Source of the DNA: Camelus dromedarius
Taxonomy: Eukaryota
Assembly: GCF_036321535.1 (NCBI RefSeq)
Contig: NC_087436.1
Span: forward strand, 65,660,001-65,724,000
Direction of reading: 5' to 3'
Length of the DNA stretch: 64,000 nucleotides
Part shown: positions 10,880-58,330 of the stretch, one piece after another
Position numbering within the stretch: the stretch's first letter is position 1
How the letters are laid out: each line of letters starts with the position of its first letter
Translations under genes and position numbers: made by a program
Notes under the pieces: model-generated
Database searches by the model: none
Seen by the model: only the letters and a program-made list of their open reading frames with translations
What the model was told of the DNA's origin: nothing

Positions 10880-11482
10880 AAAGCTACAAAAACATTAATT
10901 CAAAAAGATAATGTAATCCAATGTTCAGAGTAGCATTATTTATAATTGACAAGACATGTAAGCAGCCTAACTGTCCATCAACAGATGAATGGATAAAAAA
11001 GATGTGATATATATATATACACACACATATACATACAATGGAATAGTACTTAGCCATAAAAAATGAAATTTTGCCATTTGCAGAAACATGGAAAGACTTG
11101 GAGGGTATTATACTAAGTGAAATAAGTCAGACAGAGAAAGAATACTGTATGATATCACTTACATGTGAAATCTAAAAAAGACAACCAACTGGTGAATATA
11201 ACAAAAAGCAAACAGATTCATAGATACAGAGAACAAACTAGTGGTTACCAATGGAAAGAGTGAAGTGGGAGGGACAAGATAGGAGTAGGGGATTAAGAGG
11301 TACAATCTACTATGGATAAAATAAGTATGTTAAAAGGATATACTATGCAACACACAAAATACAGCCAATATCTAATAATAACTATAAATGAAGTATATAA
11401 CCATTAAAAATTGTGACTCATTATGTTGTACACCTGTAACTTATATAATATTGTACATCAACTACATTTCAATTTAAAAAAA
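10880..11482 (+). mobile_element. L1 3' end
   Basis: TGTCCATCAACAGATGAATGGATAAA, TTGCCATTTGCAG, 3' UTR ending in an A tail. Confidence 0.9.
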
Positions 11483-19359: not shown

Positions 19360-20016
19360 TGTTGCCGATAGATGCAACCGGTTTTCCAGGTTCTTGTCTC
19401 GTCCCAGAAAGAATTCAGAGACAAGACTTAGAGGTTAAAAAAGGTAAAGTGAGGATTTATTAAAGGATGGATAGTACACTCTCAGGGGAGAGCGGGCAGG
19501 CTCAGGTGAGCAGCTGCCTTGAGTTTCTTTAGCAAGTTAGCTACATAGGGTGTAAAAATGAATGGGTAGAATATTCATTGAGGAGGAAAGGGTTTGGGGT
19601 CGTATTCCCTGATTATCATCCCACCTCCACCTTCCCAAAGGGAGGAGGGATTTTTGTCCTTATTTAGTCTGGATCAGAAGTATCATGGTGTTGGTGCGTG
19701 ATGGGTACTTCTGATCTGCAAGGCTAATTTTATTGAAATGAGGGCATAATGAGCAAAGGTTACATTTGGACACTAGAAATTCCTGCCTTTTCTCACCTTT
19801 CTTTGTTCTTCTCCAGGCCACTTGTCACCCCAAAAAGCATGATCCCTTATCAGCCCCAAGGTTCCTGCTTTTCTTTCTCTGCCCAAGGATCCCTGCTGCT
19901 TACATGATGTGTGGTTTCCTGCATTTGGGCTGTGCCCCTCCTTTCTGCCCAATTCCTGCCATTTGGTCTGTGTCCCCCTTTCTCTGCTCATATCTAGCTA
20001 TCTGCCTGCTCTAACA
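19360..20016 (-). mobile_element. Young ERV1-type solo LTR (657 bp), copy 1
   Basis: TG...CA termini, 4-bp TSD TTAA (19356-19359 / 20017-20020), AATAAA on the minus strand near 19456-19461. Confidence 0.93.
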
Positions 20017-20586
20017 TTAATACGTGTGGGATGTATTGTTTTCTCTTTATCAAAATTGTGTGATATTAGTGGTATTTTGTTGTAACAGTTATTAATTCTT
20101 ATTTATCTGGAAAGGCGATTTATTTGAAGAATATTGCATATTGGCCACAGAGTCTGAAAACAAAGTTGGAAATGGGAAGGAATTAAGGCACTTCCAGGGA
20201 GTTGAGTAGTAAGAACTTTTCAACAGCCTCCAGGGAACTGCCTCTAGATTGAATAAACTCCTCCATTAAGCACTGATTCTATTGTAGATGACATGCCTCT
20301 AGGCAATTGGCTGATTTCTCTGAGATATGCTATTGGAGCTTTAATGTAATTATATTTAAGGGCAAATTACTCAGCCACCTTGATAAGGAGAAAGTCCATT
20401 TTGTTGATGCCATCATAATCTCCATCTCTACCTCTGTAGACACTGTTTATGATCCCATACTGCAAACTGCAGTGTTGCTAAGGAAGGTGTTCTGCTGGCA
20501 TCCAGTGAATGGACCGTTGACTTCCAGATAATAAAGACCTTCTCCCTAACATTTAAGCTGACCAGAAGTCTCTATTATTCTGGGAA

Positions 20587-20914
20587 TGTTTTAGAACAGT
20601 TGAGCTACTATAATGGAATACCATAGACTGTGTACTTTATAAACAACAGAAATTTATAGCTCATAGTTCTAAAGGCTAGGAAGTCCATGATCAAAGTACT
20701 GGCAGAGATGATGTCTTGTGAGAGCCCACGTTTTGGTTCATAGCAGGCCACCCTCTGGCTTTGTCCTTAGATGGAAGAAGGGTCAAGGGAGTTCCCTAGA
20801 ATCTCTTTTATAGAGGCACTAATCACCTCCCAAAAGCCCCACCTCCAAACACTACCACATTGGGAATAATGTTTTAACGTGAATTTTACAGACACAAGCA
20901 TTTAGTTTACAGCA
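20587..20914 (-). mobile_element. MaLR LTR, MLT1A-like
   Basis: AATACCATAGACTG...AAACAACAGAAATTTAT...CTAATCACCTCCCAAAAGCCCCACCTCC pattern. Confidence 0.8.
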
Positions 20915-23287: not shown

Positions 23288-23944
23288 TGTTGCCGATAGA
23301 TGCAACCGGTGTTCCAGGTTCTTGTCTCGTCCCAGAAAGAATTCAGAGACAAGACATAGTGGTTGAAAAAGGTAAGGTGAGGATTTATTAAAGGATGGAT
23401 AGTACACTCTCAGGGGAGAGTGGGCAGGCTCAGGTGAGCAGCTGCCTTGAGTTTCTTTAGCAAGTTAGCTACATAGGGTGTAAAAATGAATGGGCAGAAT
23501 ATTCATTGGGGAGGGAAGGGTTTGGGGTCGTATTCCCTGATTATCATCCCACCTCCACCTTCCCAAAGGGAGGAGGGATTTTTGTCCTTATTTAGTCTGT
23601 ATCGGAAGTGTCATGGTGTTGGTGCGTGATGGGTACTTCTGATCTGCAAGGCTAATTTTATTGAAATGAGGGCATAATGAGCAAAGGTTACATTTGGACA
23701 CTAGAAATTCCTGCCTTTTCTCACCTTTCTTTGTTCTTCTCCAGGCCACTTGTCACCCCAAAAAGCATGATCCCTTATCAGCCCCAAAGTTCCTGCTTTT
23801 CTTTCTCTGCCCAGGGAGCCCTGCTGCTTACATGATGTGTGGTTTCCTGCATTTGGGCTGTGCCCATCCTTTCTGCCCAATTCCTGCCATTTGGTCTGTG
23901 TCCCCCTTTCTCTGCTCATATCTAGCTATCTGCCTGCTCTAACA
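23288..23944 (-). mobile_element. Young ERV1-type solo LTR (657 bp), copy 2
   Basis: TG...CA termini, 4-bp TSD CTAA (23284-23287 / 23945-23948). About 16 substitutions and no indels relative to copy 1. Confidence 0.93.
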
Positions 23945-25149
23945 CTAATTTGATTAGTTTGCATTTTAACATAATTATACATGTTATTTATATTTCAGTT
24001 TAGATGCCGCCTCCTCTAAGAACTTTCTAAGGCCTGTGTTACATGTATACTCAACATGGTTATGAGCCTCAACCACTTAAGTACAAAGCACATTGATTAG
24101 TCTTTCATAGTATTTACTGAAGGTATTTTATATACATATATATATAAAATGTTCACTGTTTGGTCTCTTCTAGATCATAGTTTTCTTGAAAATATGGACT
24201 ATGTCTTTCACATATATGTTTCATAGTGGGAATTCAATACATTCTTGTCAAATAAATGTTAAAACCTTAAGTATGAGATTCATTATAATGATATATTCTA
24301 TACCATTACTCTAACTTCTTATCAGCTATTATCTCCTGTTAGGGACTTTCCTGTGTCACAGGATATGTTCTGATATCTCCTATTTCCTATAGCAATCTTC
24401 TGCAAATTTATCAAATCCCAAGCATTTCATCTGTAAGTAAAAACAAAAGAAGAAAAATTAGCTCAAATATAATTTTCAATTACCTGTGTCATGATGGAAA
24501 AAAGGAATTAATCAAAATCAAATACCATCATATGATCCTCTCTATAACACAATTTATCTTCATTGTAATCTAGTCAGAATGTTATTTCCAAGTTTACAAG
24601 TGTGTTGTATAAAGTTCTTATTTTACCTTGTCACCAAAGTTAAAAGAGAAAACAAGCCATTGCAAAGTGAGGTCAAGGATTTTATTATAGATGAAAATTT
24701 ATTAGAACTAAGAAGATAGTCTCGTGCTGTGATTTTGCTGTGTTGTCACTAACTTGTTTTCTGAAATGGGGCATATTTTCTCTTAAGCTGTTTGTAAAAT
24801 AACCACAATTATTTTCTCCCTTTGTTCTAAAGCAACCATCAAATTAGGCAAATTAACAATTTTCATTATTGCTTATTCTGAGTGATTTATCAATCCATCT
24901 TATTTTAACTGGTACATTCCGTTTACAAAAGAACCAATATTATATAATTTAAGATAAGAGGCATATCGATTTTAATTTTTTTATTTTTATGTTTACTACT
25001 ATTGCTCGATGATATCCAAACACTACATCTAGATACTATTTACCAAGAGTTGAATAAAGCATGCTTCATTTCCATTTGTGAATAACAAAGACTTGTGATT
25101 ATATAACTTAAAAATAACGAAGAGTGTAAAGTAAACTAGACCAAAGGTA

Positions 25150-33994: not shown

Positions 33995-35583
33995 TAATAT
34001 AAAACTAATGAAATTGCCAAACCAATATTGAAGAAAAAGAACAAAGCTAGAGTCATAACCCTGCCAGACTTTAGACAATACTACAGAGCTACAGTAATCA
34101 AAACATCATGGTATTGGTAGAAAAATAGACTTATGGATCAATGGAACAGAATAGAGAGCCCAGAAATAAACCCACACATCTACAGTGAATTAATCTTCAA
34201 TAAATGAGGCAAGAATATGCAATGGAGAAAATAGTCTCTTTTGCAAGTAGTGTCAGGAAAGCTGGACAGCTGCATGTAAATCAATGAAGTTAGAACACTC
34301 CCTCACACTATACATAAAAGTAAACTCAAAATGGCTTAAAGAGTTAAACATGAGACAATACACCATAAACCTCCTAAAAGAGAACACGGGCAAAACATTC
34401 TCTGTCATAACTCTCAGTGATATTCTCCTAGGGCAGTCTACTGAGGCAATAGAAATAAAAGCAAAAATAAACAAATGGGATATAATTAAACTTACAAGCT
34501 TTTGCATAGCAAAGGAAACCATAAACAAAATGAAAAGACATACTATGAAATGGGAGAAAATATTCTCAAATGATGTGATTGACAAGGGCTTATTTTCCAG
34601 AATAAACAAACAGCTCATGTAATTCAATAACAAAAAAACCAAACAACCCAAGTCAATAATGGGCAGAACCTAAGCAAACATTACCCCAGGAATACATACA
34701 AATGGCCAACAGGCACATTAAAAAATGCTCAATATTGCTAATTACCAGAGAAATGCAAATCAAAACTACAATGAGGTATCACCTCACACTAGTCAGAATG
34801 GCCATCATTCAAAAATCCACAAATGACAAATGCTGGAGAGGCTGTGGAGAAAGGGGAACCCTCCTACACTGCTGGTGGGAATGCAGTTTGGTGCAGCCAC
34901 TGTGGAAAACAGTATGGAGATTCCTCAAAAGATTAGGAATAGACTTACCGTATGACCCAGGAATCCCACTCCTGGGCATATATCCAGAAGGAACCCTACT
35001 TCAGGATGACACCTGCACCCCAATGTTCATAGCAGCACTATTTACAATAGCCAAGACATGGAAACAGCCTAAATGTCCATCAACAGATGACTGGATAAAG
35101 AAGAAGTGGTATATTTATACAATGGAATACTATTCAGCCATAAAAACCAACAACATAATGCCATTTGCAGCAACATGGATGCTCCTGGAGAATGTCATTC
35201 TAAGTGAAGTAAGCCAGAAAGAGAAAGAAAAATACCATATGAGATTGCTCATATGTGGAATCTAAAACAAAAACAACAACAACAACAAAAGCATAAGTAC
35301 AAAACAGAAATAGACTCATAGACATAGAATACAAACTTGTGGTTGCCAAGGGGGCAGAGGGTGGGAAGGGATAGACGGGATTTCAAAATTGTAGAACAGA
35401 TAAACAAGATTATACTGTATAGCACAGGGAAATATACACAAGATCTTATGGAAGCTCACAGAGAAAAAAATGTCTCAATGAATATATATATGTTCATGTA
35501 TAACTGAAAAATTGTGCTCTACACTGGAATTTGACACAACATTGTAAAATGATTAAAAATCAATAAAAAATGTTTTAAAAAAA
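33995..35583 (+). mobile_element. 5'-truncated lineage-specific L1 (ORF2 C-terminus and 3' UTR)
   Basis: ORF 34702-35265 is the L1 ORF2p C-terminus with the [18 protein letters not shown] cysteine motif. ORF 34284-34622 is upstream ORF2. 3' UTR with AATAAA and A tail. Confidence 0.95.
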
Positions 35584-35599
35584 GCCATGATAATGAAAA

Positions 35600-37040: not shown

Positions 37041-40000
37041 TCTAGTATATGACCACCACTTGGTGGGGATAGTTGAACAAGTAAAAATATGATCTTCTCA
37101 TTACAGAGAAAAAACGTGGATTTTATTGGGAGATGGAGCAGCATTAGGCAATGCTAACTAGAATCTGTGATTTTATAGGTGGTGACTGAGCTGGGGTAAA
37201 ATTAATCATGAGAAATAAACCATTTAAATAGTCATGATAAGAGGACTAGGGAAGTGTCATCATTATGAACACTGAAGGTCCTCAGAATGATGTCAGAAAT
37301 ATGAATGAAGAGAAATACAGTGAACCAAGTGTGCAAACCATCAGTGCATGAAGGGGAGTATCTCAGACCAAGGAAATCTCTAGATGAGTGTGACATTAAG
37401 AAGGTGGCACGCATTGCAATTTGTAATCAGATTAGTTGCTCTTTCCTCAGAGTTTCCAAACTACTTTAATTATGGCTTTATTAAAACATATATTTTAATT
37501 ACCATTACCATTGTTTGCTCTTGAATTCTTGTCTACGGCAGTATGCTGAAATTTGTAGGCACTGATTTTTTTTATAGGTTGATATTCTCTGAAGAGTGAA
37601 ATTATGTATTTAATCTAAGAGAATAATTTCCATAAGGATAGGAAGGGAGTCTTGTATACAATTTAAAAATGCAAATAAGAGAATGAAGATTTGAATGTTA
37701 TATCCTTACCTTTCTATGTAAAAAATAAAGGAGAGTCGTTTGTTTGGCTTTATTTTTTAAAGAAGTATTGTGATTTTAGGCTGCAGGAATATATGGGCCA
37801 TCAAATCACAGCATGATTTGTCTTTAAGTTATGAATCTCAAACTTTAATAGGAACTTTGACATCATAATGTTCTTCATTAAAAGAATAATAAAAACTGCA
37901 TGATGAAAAAAATTAATAAATGGACAAGTACACTTTAGAAAAGAAAATCAAGAGGACTCCGGATATTTAGCATGTTGCTGTCTAAAAGAAGACATCATGA
38001 TACCAAATCATTCAGAATAAACAGATAGAGATTATAAAATGTTTAAACCTGAAGAACAACTCTTCAGGTCGTGTATTTGAGAATAATCTTCCCTAGGAAA
38101 GAATGAGCTTCTCTTAACCTGACTGATGTAAGTGAAGACTTTAAGTTCCACCTCTTTAGGAACAATATAGAATGTTCCCCTCTTGAGGAATACAATGGTA
38201 TTAGATGGTTTCTAAGACTCCTTATAAGCCTTATAGTTAATAATTCTGCATAATATTTGATAGAGTAAATAGTGTGTTAATAACTTACTTGATTAATAAC
38301 TCATTTTCATATACCAACTCTTATTTAGAGTAGAATTTAAGTATAATTGCATGAGTATATTTTATCTCAGGGGATAAGCAATAATTCCATTAATTTTTTA
38401 GATAACATGAAAAGAAAAAATGTACTTTCAGTTCACTACTACAAAAGTAATTTCAGATAATCCTATAAAACTAAAAAAATAAAGCATTATGCCTTGATGT
38501 CAAGGCTGGAAGTAAATTTTTGGTGTTTAAAAAATGAATTTCTTTGTCCTCTTAATTTATGAGAGAAATAAGTTGGTCTTACTTTAGAAGCTAACATTTA
38601 TAAATAGTGAATTTGAATTTACATGAAGTTAATAGGACTTTTATAAGTAATAACTCTTAAAATAGGATAGAGGGAGAGGAAAATATTACTTGCAGTACAT
38701 ATTTTAAAATCCATAAAATTATATGATACTACAAGCAGGATAATAATTATGTAATAACCAGCCATCAAATTCAAGGTCACAATTTCCTGGGAGGGATGAA
38801 TATTTATTAATATTCATATTTCTATTATAATTTCTGAAGTACATTATATATAGTAAATTCACTGCTAAAAAATAGTTTCAGCAAAAATATAGAATATAAA
38901 ATCTGTCCTGAATGATTTAGGAGATCATCTACATTTAGACAGACATATAGGATACATCTTTAAACAAAACATTAGCATAGTTACTTCTAAGCATTATTCT
39001 ACATGTTCTATATACTTTGGAAGAACTTCCAAATGAAGCATCAATTTATATTTTCTGAAAATAAAAGGTATGTAATAAATTATTTTACAAATAATTTTAA
39101 AACAACAAATAAAGTTACTTACATTGATGTTTTTCAAGTGTTTGGTACATTGTAGTATTTCTTTCCAAAATTAATTCATATTTATTTATGCATCATAGTA
39201 GAATGAGGAAATCTAAGATCACTCTCAAGAAAAAAAGTTGAAACTTGAGATGGAATAGCCTTGATCTTTAAAAATGAAAAATGAAGCATATGGATTAGCT
39301 ATTTATACTGAAAGCAGTTTTACAATGAAAATACTACGTGTACAAGCTGCAGTTTGATCAGTCCTAAGCAGCTTGTGGATTGAGTGAAAGTTTGTAAGCT
39401 GTAAATAAGTACCATCTTTTTTTTTTTAATAAAGTAACTAGAATTATATAGTTAGGCTTCATCAAAGTTTTGTTATGGTTTTGCTGTTTGTTTTATTTTA
39501 AATTATTTCTGAGATAGGCTGTTTGATACAACATAAGAGATTTTTTGTGTCATGTTTTTCATAGTGGTATTTGTTAATCTTATGTAAAGAATATTACAAT
39601 GGTAAAGTTGACATCCACACATTTTAGAAATGATTCTTTTAACTAATAATGAAGCACAGCAGAAATGATGTGGGAACTGATCTCACAAATGAGTGAAAAT
39701 TACTTTTGTATTATTGTGCATACAGAAGATATTTTTTATACAAATTGTGCTCCCTGCCATTTTAATTCAAGATTTAGAGTATATATGTTATTACAACTTT
39801 TAAATTAGACTCTGTGTTTTCAAAGAGTATCTATATAAAAATGTATGAGCTGCTTTTTTGATGCAAAGGGAAGGGAAAATCAATTAATGTTAATTATTAT
39901 TTCAACTTAAATTTTGTTAAACTTAAATGTTAAATTTTGTGTACACCAAAATGTTTAGCTAAGATTGATTTCTTTCATATATTCTGAATATAACCAATGA

Positions 40001-41290
40001 GTGGTTATTTCTGTTTTCTAAATGTTATTTCTGTTATATATAAAGCAGGGGCTATATCTATTTATAAATCTATTCTAAGTATCTTATAGAATCTTATGTA
40101 GCTGTAAGATATGTAAGTATCTTAGAGTATTATATATAATACATATATTTCTATGAGATACTGAAAATAGATATATAATTTTATAGAATAGCAGAAGGTG
40201 AATGGGAATCAGTCAGTTGTTTATTTTTTAAATTTCACTCTATTTACTGCTTTAAAATGAACAAAAACATGTAAACAAACCAATCAGCCAAAGAAAAAAA
40301 TGAACAAAACCAAATATCACAAAGAATCTACTTTAAAAATCAAAGGGCTATCCATCGTTTTCTTTTACAGTATTATATTTTAAGCTGTTATTTTGAAAGA
40401 CTATGTTGTGACCTTACTGCAATTCAAAACCTTTTCTTCTCATTTAAGATTATTTCTGTACATATATAGAAAATAATTTAGCTGAGAATGCTCGTTGGAC
40501 TTGGTCTTAATGTGTATTTTTTTTCTGAGCATTTCTAGTGTATTGCCTAAAAAAGATATAAGGTGATATAACTGCATACACTTTAAATATTAAATTGAAG
40601 AACACAGTATCATAGTAATAAAAGAAAGACTATATCAGAGAGTCATATCAGCAAAAAGGTAGCATAGGAATTTCTATTGGCTACTCCCCCTGCAGACACA
40701 TCAATTCAATTAACTATCTGTGGACAAAATTACCTTCACAAGAGCCAAGGATTCCAGCCCCCATTTCACCCAGGCACCTGCTGGCTCCAGAGGCTTCAGG
40801 CAGCTCCCATGACACCAGACTCCAAATGAACTCTCAGAAACCCAAGTCTCCATTACCCCTACCCAAGACCAGGTAGCCCAGGCCTGAGAGACACCCTCCT
40901 GGTGGGAAAAGGGAAAAGGGCAGTAAAGTGAGGGACTCACTTTACTGTGAACCCCAGAGTCAGCCTGCCTCAGCATCAGACCAGCTCTCACAGTTCCAGG
41001 TGGCTCCCTATGGGCTTTTTCTGCCAAGCCAAGGTCCCCCTCCCTGCTCAGCCCAGTGTCTACCAGCTCCAGTGGCCCAAGCAGTGGCCCCAGCTGGCTC
41101 TAGTAGCTTCAAACCACATCCTTGGAACCAAGTTCCTAGTAGGCTTCCATGAACCCAGAACCTGGCTCACCCCTGTGCTTGCCTAGTGCAGCTGCTCCAG
41201 GCTCTGTGCTGGATCCCAGGAACCAAAAACCCTGTCTCTCCCTGGTGCCCACGGACTCCAGCAGTCCCAGCGACCTCCTCAGAACCAGGC

Positions 41291-41634
41291 TGTCAGCCGA
41301 GGGAGGCTGAAGAGGGATTCCAGGAGGTGGGCTGCCCAGTTGGAAGAAGGTGCAAGGAGCCGATATAATGTGCGAGGAGCCGACACAGAGCAAACAGCAC
41401 TTTATTACAGAACAAGTGGGTGGTGAGCGCAGGTGTACGCACTTGTCCTTTTATGATGCCGGCACATACATATTGTTCATAATGCTGACTCATGCTATTG
41501 ACTCTTGCGTATTGTTCATAATGCTAACTCCTGCTACTAGCACATGCGTACACTTATTTTTTACCTCATACACATGCAAGTTATTGTGACCTTTGACCTG
41601 GGTTCCAGGGCCTACTCACTTAAGACTGCTGACT
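41291..41634 (-). mobile_element. 3' LTR of ERV-S-like provirus (344 bp)
   Basis: Homologous to 45368-45673, with roughly 36 differences by hand count plus one extra 39-bp U3 repeat unit. Preceded by the PPT. The 5' TG is mutated to AG. Confidence 0.95.
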
Positions 41635-41645
41635 TTCCACCCCTT
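41635..41645 (-). promoter_or_regulatory. Polypurine tract
   Basis: AAGGGGTGGAA directly abuts the 3' LTR and overlaps the env stop TAA. Typical ERV-L/ERV-S PPT form. Confidence 0.85.
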
Positions 41646-42490
41646 AGGTCATGGGGACCCTGGCCCATAGAGCGGAAACCTGTGCCCAAAGACCACAGCA
41701 ACAATATAGAGAACAACATCCTGTCACTAAGCAGGTAGCTACAATGGCCAGGACAGTTAGGCCCCATCTCCAGGAGGAGGTTTGGATGACCACCATTCCT
41801 TAAGAAGGTCTCAGTTACATGATCTATGTGATTTAGCTCTTGATCTATTTGTTATAGTGCCTCAGCTACTTCCTTCTGGTGGTCTGGTATATAGATACAG
41901 CATTCGATATGTAACAGAGCACACGTGCCGCCTTGGCTTGCAGTGAGAATATCTAACGCCATCCTGTTTTGTAAGACCACCTTTCACATTTGGGTGGTTT
42001 CATCTAATAATTCCTCTATGGCTTTTCTAGTGACATTCAATGCAGCTGACATGTGCTGAACTAAAGCTTCTACCTGCAACTCTACAATGATGGTCCCAGC
42101 ACCAGGCAGGAACAGGGCCATGGGATAAAACCACCAAGCTGCACACTTTTCACGGTGCCACTGGGTGTGCTGCGGGTCCCAGTTTGCAGGGCGCTCTGTT
42201 AAAGTGGGCCGGATATGCCCAGGCAAGTACGCTTTACCCCAAGTACAGCGCCCTGTCCATTTACCCAGGAGATATGACCATCCATGGGTGCCACATAACC
42301 ATAGATATCCTGGCGGCAGGAAATTGGTGGGTTTTGTGCCAATCAAACACTGTCTGTCCGACCAAGTGGAGGCATTTACATTGCAAGTGATGTGTGGTTT
42401 GGGGCCTCGCTCAATACAGAAGGGGCTTAGACGTGTCAACTTTACATGAACAAGTACTGCCACAGAGCAGGTTCCCCTGCCCTCCAAGTA
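41644..42490 (-). pseudogene. env: env: C-terminal SU plus complete TM of gamma-type envelope, disrupted
   Basis: GYLWLCG...WTGRCTWG. Furin site REKC (probably from REKR). Fusion peptide, then [21 protein letters not shown] and CX6CC (CALLHIECC). After frameshifts, TM anchor WGLTVLAIVATCLV and Cys-rich tail CCSLYCCCGLW, ending at TAA 41644-41646. Confidence 0.93.
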
Positions 42491-43986
42491 CTACTTCTTG
42501 CTTCCCCGTCAGGGACTCAGTGGCTATCAAAGATGCATACGTTGCTGACAATTGTTTCTCAATTAAAGAATAAAGATATTCGGCCTCTTGCCACAGCTGA
42601 GACCAGAACCCTATGGGCACCTTCCGTTGCCCATGCTTTTGCCATAATCCCCAACCATATCCATCATCGTCCACACGGACTGTTAGCCAGAAAGGGAGGC
42701 CAGGATCTATAGTGTGCAGTGCCTGCGCTTGGGCCACTGCCCTCTTAGTTTCTACAAATGCACGTTTGGCTTCATCTGTCCAATCCCAGACTTCTCCTTT
42801 CTTAATCAATTTATAAAGGGGTTTAGCTATTTGGGTCAGATGAGGGATAAACACCCACCAGTATCCAAGAAGACCCAAGTAAATGTGTAACTGTTTAACT
42901 GTCTCGGGGCAGGAATATGCCTGAATCTTGTCTATCACTGCCTCAGGTAACACTTTTGTCCTCGTTCACGGCACACCCCCAGCCCACCAGGGCTTCTCTC
43001 AGTGCTGTGGCACTAGATTCCAAGTCTGAAAGAGAATCAGAGGTTAGCATTATGTCATCTATATAATGGAGCAAACGGACAGTGTCTGGTTTGCTCCATG
43101 TGGCCAGGTCCTGGGCCACCAGGCCATGACACAGTGTGGGGCTGTGCAAATATCCCTGTGGTAACACAACAAACGTCCATTGTCTACCTTTCCAGGTAAA
43201 TGCAAACTGTTCCTGGCTCTCAGGGGCTATGTCTATAGAGAAGAATGCATTGGCCAGGTCACCCACGTAGTGGCAAGTACCCAGTTCATGGGACAGCCAG
43301 TCCATCAAGTCTGTTATATTTGGCACAGCTGCATGCATGTGGGGTGACTTTGTTTAGTTCTTGATAGTCCACTGTCATCCTCCAAGAACCATATGGCTTC
43401 CACACTGGCTACACTGGAGGGTTATATGGGCGATGCATTGGCCAAATAATACCAGCTTCCTCAAGTTTCAAAATAGTCTGTCCTATCTCCTTGTGGCCTC
43501 CGGGCAACTGATTGCCTGACATTCACCACTGGAGTGGCCTGTGGCAGAATCAGAGGTGCATAATGGGGATGCCCATGTATAACTGTTTTCACCAAGTGAA
43601 CTCTCAGGCGAAATTCCCCTTGGGTCGTCTGTATTTGCAATCCTTGTAAAATGGCCATTCCCAGGATATACTCAGCTACTGGGGATATATGTACTTTATA
43701 TGCAGCAGGGGTCAAGCAGCCAATACCCAAAGTCAAAATCACTTGTTTAACTCACATTTGCTTGCTTCCATATTCCTCTATATCAAACCATGGTCCCCAA
43801 AAGTGATCTAGATTTCCATACAATAATGTAATTCCAGCTCCTATATCTACTAATGCATATATCCGCTATCCGTTTGTGGGGGACCAGTGGATAGTCAATT
43901 CAACACATGGCCTCTGATCACCTGGTTTCCCCATGTGGCCTCCAGTTGTGTGGGTTCCCCATGTCCCGGATGCCTTGGCATTCCCC
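42490..43986 (-). pseudogene. pol: pro-pol (protease, RT, tether/partial RNase H), disrupted; integrase deleted
   Basis: RIYALVDIGAG (LVDTGA with T>I), [54 protein letters not shown]. Truncated after TGKQEVVL. Confidence 0.92.
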
Positions 43987-45303
43987 CTAGTCTGGAAGGA
44001 AATCAGTTAAGGGCCACCTCTCGGCTTGTAGAGAGGTCAGCAACAGGGTATATTGTTGCTCAGGCCATAATTTTTTCCACAGGTCCATCAGAATCTCCAA
44101 AGGTTGGCTGTCCAATTTTGCACAGTCCAAGCCAGCAGCCAGTAAGTTGCACCATATTTGTCGGCGACTTACCTTCTGGGGCCCTCCCAAAATTGAGGCA
44201 TTCCTCTTTCTTTGCCCTCACGTGGACTTTCCTTTCTGAGTCACTGCATGGGAGGAGGTCGTGGACTTACCTTGAGTCTTGGCAGCACACACCCCCTTTC
44301 GGCACACCTCCACATCTCCTAGACAAGCCAGAGCCTCAGTTGCCTCATGTACATGGCAGTCTATATACGGCGCTGGTAGTGCTGCCATGGTCCCAATGTA
44401 CCCGCTGGGCCGTTAGCCAAAATCAAGTCCTTCATCTGAGCTGTAACAACTTTGTCATCTGAGCTGCTGAACTGCAAAGCAAACATCATTTGGCGCATTT
44501 CCATTTCTGAGGCAACTTGTCCTAGATCCAAATACGTGGTCCACTTACTCACGTGTTCAGGTAAATCCCCTGTATTATCCCATACAGTGCGCTCAGCAGC
44601 TATCAACCAGTTTATCAACGTATGGTTGCCAGCATTAGCGTTAGACTGGGGAATGTTTTGCAGCCATTGCCACAATAAAGGGATGGTTGTTACACTGGCC
44701 AGCTGGCCCGTCTCCTTCGGAGATAGCTCAGTCTGGTCAGTCCCATCATCCCAAAGGCGTAGTAGACTCACCCATATGCTGTTTACACCGCTTTGCCAGG
44801 TCCCACAATTCCATCGATGTATAAGACGTGTAGGTGGTTTGTCGAGTCACTTGCCGTGATCCCGCAGGAGCTCCCCCCAGGGCCATGGGTTCCTCCAGTT
44901 CCACCAGCTGCCGCACCACGGGTCGTAGACGCAGTGGAATTGGGGGGGGGGGCTGTGCTGGGTTTACCGCTCTTGAAGAGGCAGTGGAACTGGAGCCATG
45001 CAGGCGTCTTTCTGCCACACAGAGTCTCTGCTCAAGTTCTTCTTCCTTGCGCTGTAAACTGCTCCACTTGTATCTGTAATTCTATTTTCTTGGCTGGCAT
45101 GGCATAAGACCGATAAAAACATCCAGGCTCCCGGCCACCTCCCGGTGGGCCTGTGGAATGTTGTTTTCCCACAGCTCCAGAGCTTTCCAGACGTCATCTG
45201 GCTGGGGCGCCACTGTATCCCAATCTTCGGGTGGGGCCCATGCCAGCAAGTAAGCCACTATCGAGTACCATAAAGAGGTGGGGGCCGCGCTGTTTCCATC
45301 CAA
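43987..45303 (-). pseudogene. gag: ERV-L/ERV-S-type gag, frameshifted
   Basis: Fragments LWYSIVAYLLAWAPPEDW, LRLWDDGTDQTELSPKETGQLAS and VSRRQIWCNLLAAGLDCAKLDSQPLEILMDLWKKL (ERV-L Gag C-terminal pattern). No CCHC zinc knuckle. Ends at TAG 43987-43989. Confidence 0.85.
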
Positions 45304-45347
45304 GCTTCCCCAACAGTGGAAGAGGGAACAGAAGGCGGATTCACTTC

Positions 45348-45365
45348 ATCCTGCTGACTGCACCA
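45348..45365 (-). promoter_or_regulatory. Primer binding site complementary to tRNA-Ser
   Basis: TGGTGCAGTCAGCAGGAT lies 2 nt after the 5' LTR. It matches the tRNA-Ser 3'-end complement TGGCGTAGTCGGCAGGAT at 15/18, and two mismatches are CpG-decay type. Confidence 0.85.
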
Positions 45366-45367
45366 AG

Positions 45368-45673
45368 TGTCAGCCAAGGGAGGCTGAAGAGGGACTCGAG
45401 GAGGTGAGCTGCCCAACTGGAATAAGGTGAGAGAAGCCGACATAATGCGCGAGGAGCCGACGTGGAGCAAAACAGCACTTTATTGCAGTACAAGTGGGTG
45501 GCGCGCACAGGTGTATGCACTTGTCCTTTTATAATGCCCACACAAGAATATTGTTCATAATGCTAACTCCTGCTACTAGCACATGCGTATATTTATTTCT
45601 TACCTCATACTCATGCAAGTTACTGTGATCTTTGACCTGGGTTCCAGGGCCTATTCACTTAAGACTGCTGACA
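45368..45673 (-). mobile_element. 5' LTR of ERV-S-like provirus (306 bp)
   Basis: Minus strand runs TGTCAGC...GCTGACA (terminal inverted repeat). TATAAAA at 45527-45533, AATAAA at 45479-45484, followed by the PBS. Confidence 0.95.
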
Positions 45674-48445
45674 CAGGCCTTTGACAAACTTGTGTTAACC
45701 CAGGTTCCAGGCTCAGCTTCAGGCTCAGGGAAACCAAGCTCCAGTGGCACCAGACAGCTCCCATGGCTGGAAGTGGCTTTATTAGTTCCAGCCACTCAGA
45801 ACCTTCTGACTCACCTGGGTGCTGTCCAATCCCAGGAGTGCCATATAGCTCAGTAGCCACCAGTGGCCCCTATAGCTCGGATAAGCTTCCTCTGCTTCAG
45901 GCTCCTTAGAAGTTCATTCTAGCACCAGCCAGCCCCTAAGGCCCCAGGTGGCTCCAAGACACCACCCCAGAATCAGCCATCTCCCAAGGAACTCATGAAC
46001 CTGTGTTCCTGACTCTCAATACTGGCTGGTTCCTGTTGGCCCAGATGGCTCCAAGCAAGTTTCAGCTATCTCAGGCTTCCAGTACATCCCAACACCTATT
46101 GGTCCCTGCAGCCCTGGATTACTCCTCAGGCCCCCAATCAATGCCTTTGAATGCAGGCTTTTAGGGGCACCTCTGAACCCAGGTCATAGCTGGGCCCAGC
46201 ACCAGGGCTCAGTACCACTGTCCCAGACTTTGACCCACCTCAGCACTAGGGTACCCAAGGACTCCAACAGCAAGCCCACCTGCGGACACAATCAGACTGC
46301 CCACCCAGAATCTCTAGAAAGGCTGACTGGTGAAGGGCTTTTTCTGCTGAAGTCAGTCTGTGAAGACTAGAAGAGGTACCATAGTCCTCATATGTGTAGA
46401 CACCAAAGAAAGGTACAGTATTATATTTAACCAAGGAAAAATTACACCACCAAAGAAAACTAATAAAATCTCAATGACTAACCCTAAATAAATGGAGATC
46501 TATGGACTGCTTGACAAAGAATTAAAAATAATTCTCTGAAAAAAATTCAATGGAATATAAGAAATCACACATAGACAACTAAATGAAACTAGGGAAAACA
46601 TGAATAAACAAAATGAAGTAAAAACAAAGAAAAAGAAACAATTTTGAAAAATCAAGCAGAAATCCTAGAGATGAATACTATAATGACAGAATTGAAGAAA
46701 TCAGTAGAGAACCTCAACAGCGCACTCAAAGAAAACAAAAATAGTGAACTCAAAGATGGGCCATTTGAAATCATATAGTCAGAGGATAAAAAAAAAAAAA
46801 AAAAAAAGAAAAGAGTGAAGAGAGCCTACTAGAATCATGGGATACCATTAAAAGAATCTATTCATTACTGGAGTGCTAAAAGAAGGGAGAGAGAAAGGAG
46901 CAGTAGTTTATTTAAAGAAATATTGACTGAGAATTTCCAAAATCTGGAGACAGATTTTGATATCCAAATTCATGAAACTAATAGGTCACCCCAGATGTTC
47001 AAGCCAAAACAATCTCCTTCAACACACATGATAAAGCTGTCTAAAAAAAAAAAATTTTTTTAAAGCACCAAGAGAAAACAAATATCTTCACATATAAGGA
47101 AACACTATCAGGTTATAAGTGGATTTCTCAGCTGTAACTTTGCAAGCCAGGAGACATTGGGGTGATATTAATCAAAGTGCTGAAAAAACAAATTTTCAAA
47201 AACCAAAAATCAAAAGTTGAGGAAGTTTATCATCATGAGACTTGCTTTTCAAGAAACACTGAAAAGAGTTCTTCAAGCTGAAATGAAAGTATACATATGA
47301 AAATTAAAAATACACTGGTAAAGGTAAGTATATGGTTAAATTCAGAATATTCTAATACTCTAATATGATGCTGTGTTAATCACTTAACTCTAGTTTCACA
47401 GAGAAGGATCAGAAGAGACTACTATGAGAAATTATCCAATCCACCAATTTGAATAACCTAGAAGTAATGGGTAAATTCCTAGAAACATACAACCTACCAA
47501 GACTGAATCAGGAAGAAATAGAAAATCTGAACAGACCAATTGCTGGTAAGAATATTGAAATCAGTAATCAAAAATATTCCAACAAAAACAAAATTCCAGG
47601 ACCAGATGGTTTCACTGGTAAATTCTACCAAATATTTAATTAGTACCAAACTTTCTCAATCTCTTCCAAAAATAGAGGTGGAGGAAATTCTCCCAAACTC
47701 ATTCTAGGAGGCCAGCATTACTTTGATACCAATAGCAGGTAAGGACACTAGCAGAAAACTACAGGCCAATATCCATGATGAATACAGATGTAAAAATTCT
47801 CTTCAAAATACCAGCAAACTGAATTCAACAGTACATTAAAGAAATCATACACGTTAACCAAGTAGGATTTATCCCTGTGATACACAGATGGTTCAACACA
47901 TGCAAATCAATAAATGTGCTACACTACATTAAAAAAGACAAAACTCATAGAATCTCAACAGCTGCAGAAAAATCATTTGACAAAATTCAACATTTTTTTC
48001 ATAATAAAAAGCCTTCAACAAATTGGGTATAGAAGAAATCTATCTCAACATAATAAAAGATATATATGACAAACCCCTGGCACACATCATACTCAATGGT
48101 GAATGGCTGAAATTTTCTGCTAAAATAATGAGCAAAACAAGGGCACCCACTCTCACCACTCCTTTTCAACATAGTACTGGAAGTTCTAGCAAAAACAACT
48201 AGGTAACAAAAATAAATTAAAGGTACCCAAATTGAAAAGAAAAAAGTAAACTGTCACTGTTTGCAGATTTGATCATACATGTAGAAAATTCTAAAGACTA
48301 CACCAGAAAACTTGGGACTAACTAACTAATTCAGTAAAATTGCAGGATACAAAATCAACATACAAAACTTAGTCTCACTTCTATACACTAAAAACAAGCT
48401 ATATGAAAAAGAAATTTTAAAAAGCCTCAATCTACAATAGCATAA

Positions 48446-53484: not shown

Positions 53485-54590
53485 TTAAAAAGAAATAACA
53501 GTAAAAATAAATAGATGAGACCTAATTAAATTTAAAAGTTTTTGTATAGCAAAGGAAACAATCAACAAAAGGCAAAAACAACCTATAAAATGGGAGAAAA
53601 TGTTTGCAAATGATGCCACAGACAAGAGTTTTATATCCAAACTACGCAAACAGCTCATACAATTCAATATCAAAACAAACAAACAAACAACCTAATCAAA
53701 AAATGGGCTGAAGACCTAAATAGACATTTTTCCAAAGAAGGCATACGGATGGCCAATAGACACTGGAAAAAATGGTCAATATCAATAATTATTAGAAAAA
53801 TGTAAATCAAAACAAAAATGAGGTATGATCTCACAGTGGTCAGAATGACTATCATCAAAAAGTCCACAGATAATAAATGTTAGAGACGGTATGTAGAAAA
53901 GGGAACCATTGTGCACTATTGGTAAGAATGTAAATTGGTGAGGCGACTATAGAAAACAGTATGGAGTTTCCTTAAAAAGCTAAAAATAGAGCTGCCATAT
54001 TATCCAGCAATTCCACTCCTGGGCATATATCCAAAAAAATGAAAATTCTAATTTGAAAAGATACATGCACCACAATGTTCATTAGCAGCACTATATACAA
54101 TAGCCAAGACATGGAAACAATGTATGTATCCATTAACAGATGATTGACTTAAGAAGATGTGGTATCAATATACAATGGAATATTACTCAGCCATAAAATT
54201 GAATAAAATATTGCCATTTGCAGCAATGTGGATGGACTTAGAGGATTTTATGCTTAGTGAAATAAGTCAGAGGAAGACAAATACCATATAGCACTTATAT
54301 GTGGAATCTAAAACGTAATAGAAATTAATCTATATACAAAACAGTAACAGACTCACAGACATAGAAAACAAACAGTACCAAAGGGGAAGGGGCAGAGGGA
54401 CAAATTAGGAGTATGGGATTGACAGATACAAATTACTATACATAAAATAGTTAAGCAATGAGGATTTACTGTATAGCACAGGTAATTACACCTAGTATCT
54501 TGTAATAACCTGTAATGGAATATAATCTGCAAAAATGCTGTATACCTGAAGCTAACACAATATTGAAAATTAACTATACTTCAAATAATA
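53485..54590 (+). mobile_element. L1 ORF2 3' end and 3' UTR (older)
   Basis: Decayed ORF2 C-terminus (CCAGCAATTCCACTCCTGGGCATATATCC) and standard 3' UTR. Confidence 0.9.
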
Positions 54591-57679: not shown

Positions 57680-58330
57680 AAATAAAATAGACTTACCATA
57701 TAATCCAGCGATCCCACTCCTGGGCATATATCTGGAGGGAACTCTAATTCAAAAAGACACATGCACCCCAATATTCATAGCAATAGCCAAGAAACGGAAA
57801 CAACCTAAATGTTCATTGACAGATGACTGGATAAACAAGTTTTGGTGTACTTATACAATGGAACACTAGACTCAGCCATAAAAAAAATAAAATAATGCCA
57901 TTTGCAGAAACATGGATGAACCTGGAGTCTGTCATTCTAAGTGAAGTAATAAGCCCGAAAGAAAAAAGAAAAATATCATATGATAGCACTCATATGTGGA
58001 AGCTAAAAAAAAGACACAAATGAACTTACTTACAAAACAGAAACAGACTCACAGACATAGAAAACAAAATTATGGTTAACAGTGGGGAAAAGGGGTTGAA
58101 AGGGATAAATTGGGGTTTGAGATGTGCAGATACTAACTACTACATATAAAATAGGTATACAACATGTTTCTTCTGTATAGCACATGGAACTATATTTAAT
58201 ATCTTGTAGCAACCTATAATGAAAAAGAATATGAAAATGAATATATGTATGTATATATGTGACTGAAACATAATGCTGTACACCAGAAATTGACACATTG
58301 TAAACTGACTAGACTTTAATTTTTTAAAAA
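57680..58330 (+). mobile_element. L1 3' end (lineage-specific)
   Basis: KIDLPYNPAIPLLGIYLEGTLIQKDTCTPIF, followed by 3' UTR. Confidence 0.9.

Follow-up and report, generated by a model that had tools for sequence, protein, structure and literature searches.

An internally deleted, decayed endogenous retrovirus of probable ERV-S lineage in a camelid genome

The 64,000-nucleotide stretch of DNA analyzed here (NC_087436.1, positions 65,660,001 to 65,724,000; the window) contains a provirus on its minus strand at 41291-45673, in which two long terminal repeats (LTRs), a target site duplication (TSD), and a primer binding site (PBS) enclose the remnants of gag, pol, and env. We conclude, with a probability of about 90%, that this element is a defective endogenous retrovirus (ERV) of the ERV-S lineage, to which HERV-S/HERVL18 and a GGERV10-like group of birds also belong, and that it has decayed in a camelid genome. 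It is a known type of element in a new host group and not a new kind of element, because ERV-S is defined in the literature by its combination of a class III pol, a class I env, and a serine PBS. HERVS has been described as a class III element that has a PBS of type S and a class I env akin to PRIMA41/PABL and that lacks both a zinc finger and a dUTPase (PMC4724089). ERVS elements have also been described as lacking dUTPase and as recombinants of an ERV1 env with ERV3 that are widespread in amniotes (PMC5753468), and a class I env for ERV-S is stated again in bioRxiv 2024.10.28.620668. The features of the provirus, from its 5′ to its 3′ side, are as follows.

45674-45678: TSD on the 5′ side, CAGGC
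45368-45673, minus strand: 5′ LTR, 306 nucleotides (nt), TGT...ACA, with 7-bp inverted ends; TATA-like box at 45527-45533 and AATAAA at 45479-45484, spaced 49 nt apart
45348-45365, minus strand: PBS of the serine type, starting 2 nt past the 5′ LTR
43990-45290, minus strand: gag, HERV-S-type, broken by stops and frame changes, with no CCHC knuckle and an unclear start
43512-43922, minus strand: protease and linker, with two stops and a degenerate active-site motif; 44-46% identical by tblastn to galliform class III Pol
42955-43510, minus strand: reverse transcriptase (RT) core with YIDD, frame changes near 43512, 43345, and 42960, one stop, and a gap of ~50 nt near 42960
42486-42962, minus strand: RT connection (tether) domain, stop-free; Pfam RT_RNaseH_2, E = 7.9e-15; 60% identical to mole and 56% to galliform Pol
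42486-42495, minus strand: deletion junction, where pol homology stops and env homology starts; RNase H, integrase, and the N-terminal half of the surface subunit (SU) are absent
41780-42490, minus strand: env, C-terminal part of SU and ectodomain of the transmembrane subunit (TM), with two stops, a degenerate furin site, and a heptad N-glycan site
41924-41974 and 41897-41923, minus strand: immunosuppressive domain (ISD) and CX6CC motif of TM, respectively
41644-41781, minus strand: membrane anchor of env and its Cys-rich tail, CCSLYCCC, read in a different frame; 58% identical to a sloth env, E = 1e-8
41635-41645, minus strand: short polypurine tract ahead of the 3′ LTR
41291-41634, minus strand: 3′ LTR, 344 nt, with an internal duplication of ~38 nt and one mismatch at its first base
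41286-41290: TSD on the 3′ side, CAGGC
40660-47260, plus strand: older long interspersed element 1 (L1) within which the provirus is inserted, with a GC-rich 5′ part and a decayed ORF1; limits approximate, from the GC profile

The ends of the provirus are those of a class III element. A 5-bp TSD and TGT...ACA ends have been given as the criterion for class III ERVs (PMC8278194), and both are present, with the single first-base mismatch in the 3′ LTR. A preliminary description of the window had given the LTRs a length of ~306 bp, which holds for the 5′ LTR and not for the longer 3′ LTR. Of the 305 ungapped columns of the LTR alignment, 33 are mismatched, corresponding to a Kimura two-parameter (K2P) distance of 0.119 (bootstrap range, 0.080 to 0.163), or 0.073 outside CpG context, and a 20-nt word from the LTR occurs twice in the window versus not once in 100 shuffles. 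The same 20-nt pattern matched one metagenome contig (L001), a hit dismissed as chance since the contig has 66% GC and no similarity past 23 nt. By a count made by eye, 15 of the 18 bases of the PBS agree with a HERV-S PBS to which Table S1 of Vargiu 2016 (PMC4724089) assigns type 'S', this published PBS being the only reference compared.

The lineage of pol was assessed from the RT, after the boundaries of protease, RT, and connection domain had been mapped by tblastn with long class III Pols. The RT matched Pfam RVT_1 (E = 1.9e-17). Its best match in the PDB was the RT of murine leukemia virus (MLV), at just 53 bits, and two other entries, which from their codes we take to be HERV-K and foamy virus, scored 42 and 41 bits; in the protein collections, 21 of the 22 matches scored 108 to 180 bits, and the best representatives, of class III, reached 184 bits. 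Identities were 73% to a bat protein, 71% to mole, 67-73% to unnamed rows, 57-65% to galliforms, 57% to armadillo, and 44-55% to dUTPase-bearing Pols; they were 67-69% to the HERV-S-like rows P0039 and P0041 versus 45% to the ERV-L-like row P0059. These labels are stand-ins. In a comparison by eye, P0041 and the published HERVS Pol differ at ~16 of 167 positions, and P0059 matches the published HERVL Pol; another row, P0148, carries MLVIN_C. A quick tree was built from the 87 of 167 matches that covered at least 100 RT residues, and a careful tree from 35 of those 87. In the careful tree, the element fell into a clade with P0039/P0041 and the galliform and armadillo rows (support, 100/99); its nearest grouping (95/87) comprised the HERV-S-like pair and two unnamed rows, with the element on a branch separate from the HERV-S-like rows. 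Forcing the RT to group with six ERV-L-like rows was rejected by the approximately unbiased (AU) test (P = 0.00014), and forcing it to group with nine distant rows, a mixed set that includes class-I-like fish rows, gave an AU P value of 0.022. The RT was nested deep in class III among rows that include no named mammalian gammaretrovirus. Together with the serine-type PBS, these results bear out the class III, ERV-S-like assignment of the preliminary description, and the grouping of the RT with class I that it had set as a refutation did not occur. Searches with an RT pattern for related loci gave 6 matches in viral contigs and 126 in metagenome contigs, none of which was confirmed. Among the proteins compared, P0043, annotated in armadillo as 'NEDD4 family-interacting protein 2,' is ERV-S-type RT over its first ~180 residues and is probably a gene-model fusion.

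Gag is consistent with this placement. It is collinear with the published HERVS Gag in the N terminus and the capsid region, and across a 36-residue capsid stretch 19 of its residues equal those of HERVS Gag versus 10 for HERVL Gag, counted by eye on published sequences; the earlier label 'ERV-L Gag' was therefore replaced by 'HERV-S-type.' A zinc knuckle (CX2CX4HX4C) is absent from all three minus-strand frames of 43800-45365, the closest approach being one match to three of the four positions that spans a stop. Pfam returned no family for the gag or protease pieces, the class III Gag of a ray matched gag weakly by tblastn (E = 2e-5), and the ESM Atlas was uninformative, as the Gag piece found only unnamed clusters at 0.93 and named ones at 0.82 to 0.84.

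The envelope is of the gamma type, as had been proposed. The env piece, with X at its two stops, matched Pfam TLV_coat (E = 8e-16), and its structural matches were syncytin-1 and -2, MLV-type TM, and filovirus TM. The presence of this class I env sets the element apart from the ERV-L pattern of having no env. The ISD, CX6CC, and CCSLYCCC tail were all found, as were the YIDD motif, the knuckle-less Gag, the 5-bp TSD, and the serine PBS that the preliminary description had listed. Nine relatives of env passed among 510 candidate proteins of 416 to 2,000 amino acids (aa). The top four are open frames of Rhinolophus, Choloepus, and Equus (two loci) that are 41-45% identical locally, bear the NCBI name 'PABLB member 1-like,' and have an ISD, CX6CC, and YCC(C) tail in common with the camelid env; one of them, the Equus env P0004 (433 aa), matches the published HERVS SU by eye. 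It had been suggested that an intact env could exist elsewhere in the genome. None of the nine matches in this length range has a camelid name, in a collection that does include dromedary proteins; this argues only weakly against the existence of an intact camelid env, since lengths of 130 to 415 aa lay outside the search and annotation often skips ERV frames. The open frames are of interest in their own right. P0002 to P0005 and their clusters are ERV-S-type open env frames from Rhinolophus, Choloepus didactylus, and Equus, all labeled 'PABLB-like.' The 433-aa Equus frame is 98-99.8% identical among horse, donkey, and Przewalski's horse (98% for horse versus donkey), while a second, 460-aa frame is present in horse and Przewalski's horse and measures 296 aa in donkey.

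A large internal deletion and the breakage of every gene, on both of which the preliminary description was silent, define the present state of the provirus. The match to the galliform Pol P0040 stops at residue 484 of 1,093, and the env match starts at residue 195 of 483 (P0002) or 141 of 426 (P0003); hence RNase H, integrase, and the N-terminal half of SU, ~2.2-2.4 kb in all, are gone. The provirus would thus lack about a third of its length, and its parent would have measured ~6.6-6.8 kb. Stops and frame changes interrupt gag, pro-pol, and env alike: pro-pol has three frame changes, stops, and the ~50-nt gap, env has two stops and one frame change ahead of the membrane anchor, and the protease motif and furin site are both degenerate. 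As judged from its sequence, the provirus can make no functional viral protein today, and its LTRs could at most serve as putative promoter or polyadenylation signals.

The deletion might have predated integration, in which case the locus would be one copy of a non-autonomous, internally deleted ERV-S sub-family copied in trans by a helper. A single clean junction that takes out integrase and RNase H and yet spares the PBS, gag, and polypurine tract fits this history, and there are precedents in the internally deleted sub-families described for XtERV-S (PMC8278194) and the short non-autonomous clusters described for alpaca ERV1 (PMC8605555). However, only one copy is in hand, and both the other, smaller gap (near 42960) and the duplication in the 3′ LTR are indels that also arose in place. 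We therefore regard loss before integration as a reasonable possibility, though rather the less probable course.

It is very unlikely that the locus is instead a local chimera, in which class III gag-pol was joined at ~42490 to the env of an unrelated, PABL-like class I virus. The pol-env join does coincide with the deletion, the env relatives do carry the name 'PABLB member 1-like,' and the ISD is nearly equal in PABL and HERVS. However, the HERVS env is itself PABL/PRIMA41 related (PMC4724089), the Equus relative agrees with HERVS SU on inspection by eye, the env of the class III element HERVL32 also has a YCCC tail, and both parts of the provirus are enclosed by one LTR pair with a TSD. Scarcely credible is an ERV-L-lineage element with an independently captured env, as described for frog XtERV-S: YIDD, the 5-bp TSD, the TGT...ACA ends, and the zinc-finger-less Gag are common to ERV-L, but the AU test rejects the ERV-L-like grouping, Gag is nearer to HERVS, and the dUTPase-bearing Pols are no more than 44-55% identical in RT.

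Several points weigh against the assignment to ERV-S. The careful RT alignment has only 131 columns, the tree holds no named HERV-S, MuERV-L, or MLV row, so that its labels rest on by-eye consensus matches and Pfam content, and the 'S-like' group was defined only after the first tree. In the env tree, the camelid env and the bat, sloth, and Equus envs, five together, are joined with support of 89/91, and the position of the camelid env among them did not resolve. Two diagnostic characters would lie within the deleted part: the dUTPase position at the 3′ end of pol, for which we can point only to the two nearest long Pols, P0040 and P0045, neither of which has a dUTPase, and the SU CXXC motif, which is CWIC or CWVC in the Env relatives.

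The host is a camelid, as had been supposed. At 34663-35265, part of a young L1 ORF2 has identities of 95, 91, 90, and 87% to four proteins of Camelus dromedarius versus 76-80% for the five pig matches, among the 120 rows listed; since it is closer to dromedary than to pig proteins, the host can be placed in the camelids, though not at the species level. The words of 39500-47500 were compared with sequencing runs, of which 24 were listed; the share present is 0.89-0.92 in 14 of these, which come from 10 samples and 7 studies and carry two organism labels. The provirus makes up 55% of that stretch, and therefore these 14 runs hold at least ~80% of its words. They show presence in many animals and not fixation, because the list ranks the best holders and one of them may be the source; four small runs of those listed held no words of the stretch. 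In six runs of RNA or RNA-like type, the share of these words is 0.17-0.23, which, as the stretch includes the L1, is no evidence of expression.

Rates of 5e-9 per year for camels (PMC8605555) and 2e-9 per year (PMC5682256) were used to date the insertion as K/(2r). The LTR divergence corresponds to 12 million years (My; range, 8 to 16) at the faster rate and 30 My (20 to 41) at the slower one, and the non-CpG divergence to 7 and 18 My, respectively. The camels and llamas split ~16-17 My ago, and the artiodactyl radiation is at least 64 My old; all of the estimates are younger than that radiation and straddle the camel/llama split. The 5-bp TSD and TGT...ACA ends record an integrase-type insertion into an older L1 in a camelid. 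Before that, the ancestor would have primed reverse transcription on a serine tRNA, as established retrovirology suggests, and would have entered cells by means of a disulfide-linked, gamma-type SU/TM env that the ERV-S lineage had presumably gained long ago. An ancestor with such an env would most likely have reached the camelid germ line by infection. Integration may have taken place roughly 8-40 My ago, after camelids had split from other artiodactyls, and neutral decay would have followed.

The window holds other repeats as well. The ORF1 domains of the L1 that harbors the provirus are weak (Transposase_22, E = 4e-4; Tnp_22_dsRBD, E = 4e-3; both below the Pfam cutoff), and the provirus sits in the GC-rich front of this L1, which may correspond to its 5′ untranslated region. 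The 3′ part of a young camelid L1 occupies 34000-35590, and other L1 3′ ends lie near 10900, 53500-54500, and 57700-58200. Two 658-nt LTRs at 19360-20017 and 23288-23945, in the same orientation, 3.9 kb apart, and with a K2P distance of 0.026, were considered as a second provirus. This was rejected, as each LTR has its own 4-bp TSD (TTAA and CTAA) and no env domain was found in 20020-20602; they are two separate solo LTRs of a young family, probably of class I. The GC-richer segment 27574-28461, with a stop-free frame of 295 codons on the plus strand and one of 118 codons on the minus strand, the latter with no Pfam match, is possibly another decayed LTR element. Outside the window, P0194 (1,374 aa, from a 7,586-nt Logan contig) is a retroviral-type Pol in which thymidylate kinase, thymidine kinase, and dUTPase domains accompany protease, RT, and RNase H; it had no integrase match, and a single literature search found no paper on that domain combination.

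With this element, camelids join the hosts of ERV-S, which is the branch of class III retroviruses that carries an envelope. The locus is a dead, internally deleted copy with no sign of function; as a marker it can be dated, to an age range that may span the divergence of camels and llamas. The open 'PABLB-like' env frames of horse, donkey, horseshoe bat, and sloth look ERV-S-type and are candidates for retention by their hosts; camelids lack the ARTenvV frame that is found in other artiodactyls. A wider scenario, in which ERV-S invaded camelids independently, hosts kept ERV-S envs several times, and camelids may hold a conserved, expressed env at another locus, seems improbable when taken as a whole.

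The preliminary description had implied that the family is rare, which does not agree with the ERV-S relatives reported from primates, 29 bat species (HERV-S-related ERVs; PMC12402889), and horse, for which a Repbase element with a HERVS-similar env (ERV3-1N-EC; PMC4724089) and ERVs with a serine PBS (PMC5682256) are on record. No description of a camelid ERV-S was found in the literature searched, a scope that left out most subscription papers, Dfam, and Repbase. Camelid LTR elements have been catalogued only to superfamily, with an alpaca ERVL cluster in Fig. 7 (PMC8605555); the terms 'class III,' 'ERV3,' and 'HERV-S' were not found in the text of that paper, whose supplements, Fig. 7, and library may contain this family.

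Among known systems, ERV-L (HERV-L and MuERV-L) and MaLR share with the camelid element class III membership, YIDD, the 5-bp TSD, and the missing zinc finger, whereas ERV-L elements are largely env-less, have a dUTPase, and stand apart in the RT analysis. XtERV-S of Xenopus tropicalis (PMC8278194) likewise joins class III gag-pol to a class I TM with an ISD, CX6CC, and a heptad glycan site, and has a serine PBS, a 5-bp TSD, and a short leader; it differs in its dUTPase, its 705-bp LTRs, and its intact frames. An X. tropicalis Pol in our set, P0052, which may belong to an element other than XtERV-S, is 48-50% identical and falls outside the S clade. The galliform P0040 cluster (chicken, guineafowl, and ptarmigan), whose GGERV10-like name we infer from HERVS matches in PMC4724089, is 65% identical in RT and 56% in the connection domain, lacks dUTPase, and forms a sister group within the same 100/99 clade, but has bird hosts and an intact Pol. 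Horse ERV3-1N-EC is, like the camelid element, a class III element with a HERVS-like env (PMC4724089). The 'PABLB-like' envs of Equus, Rhinolophus, and Choloepus, compared as proteins alone, are open frames, in contrast to the camelid env with its two stops, frameshift, and missing N-terminal half. The primate HERV-S/HERV18 (HERVL18, LTR18) shares with the camelid element a class III Pol, a serine PBS, a Gag without a zinc finger, and a PRIMA41/PABL-type class I env with an ISD; the camelid copy differs in host order, in its separate RT branch, and in its loss of RNase H, integrase, and the N-terminal half of SU.

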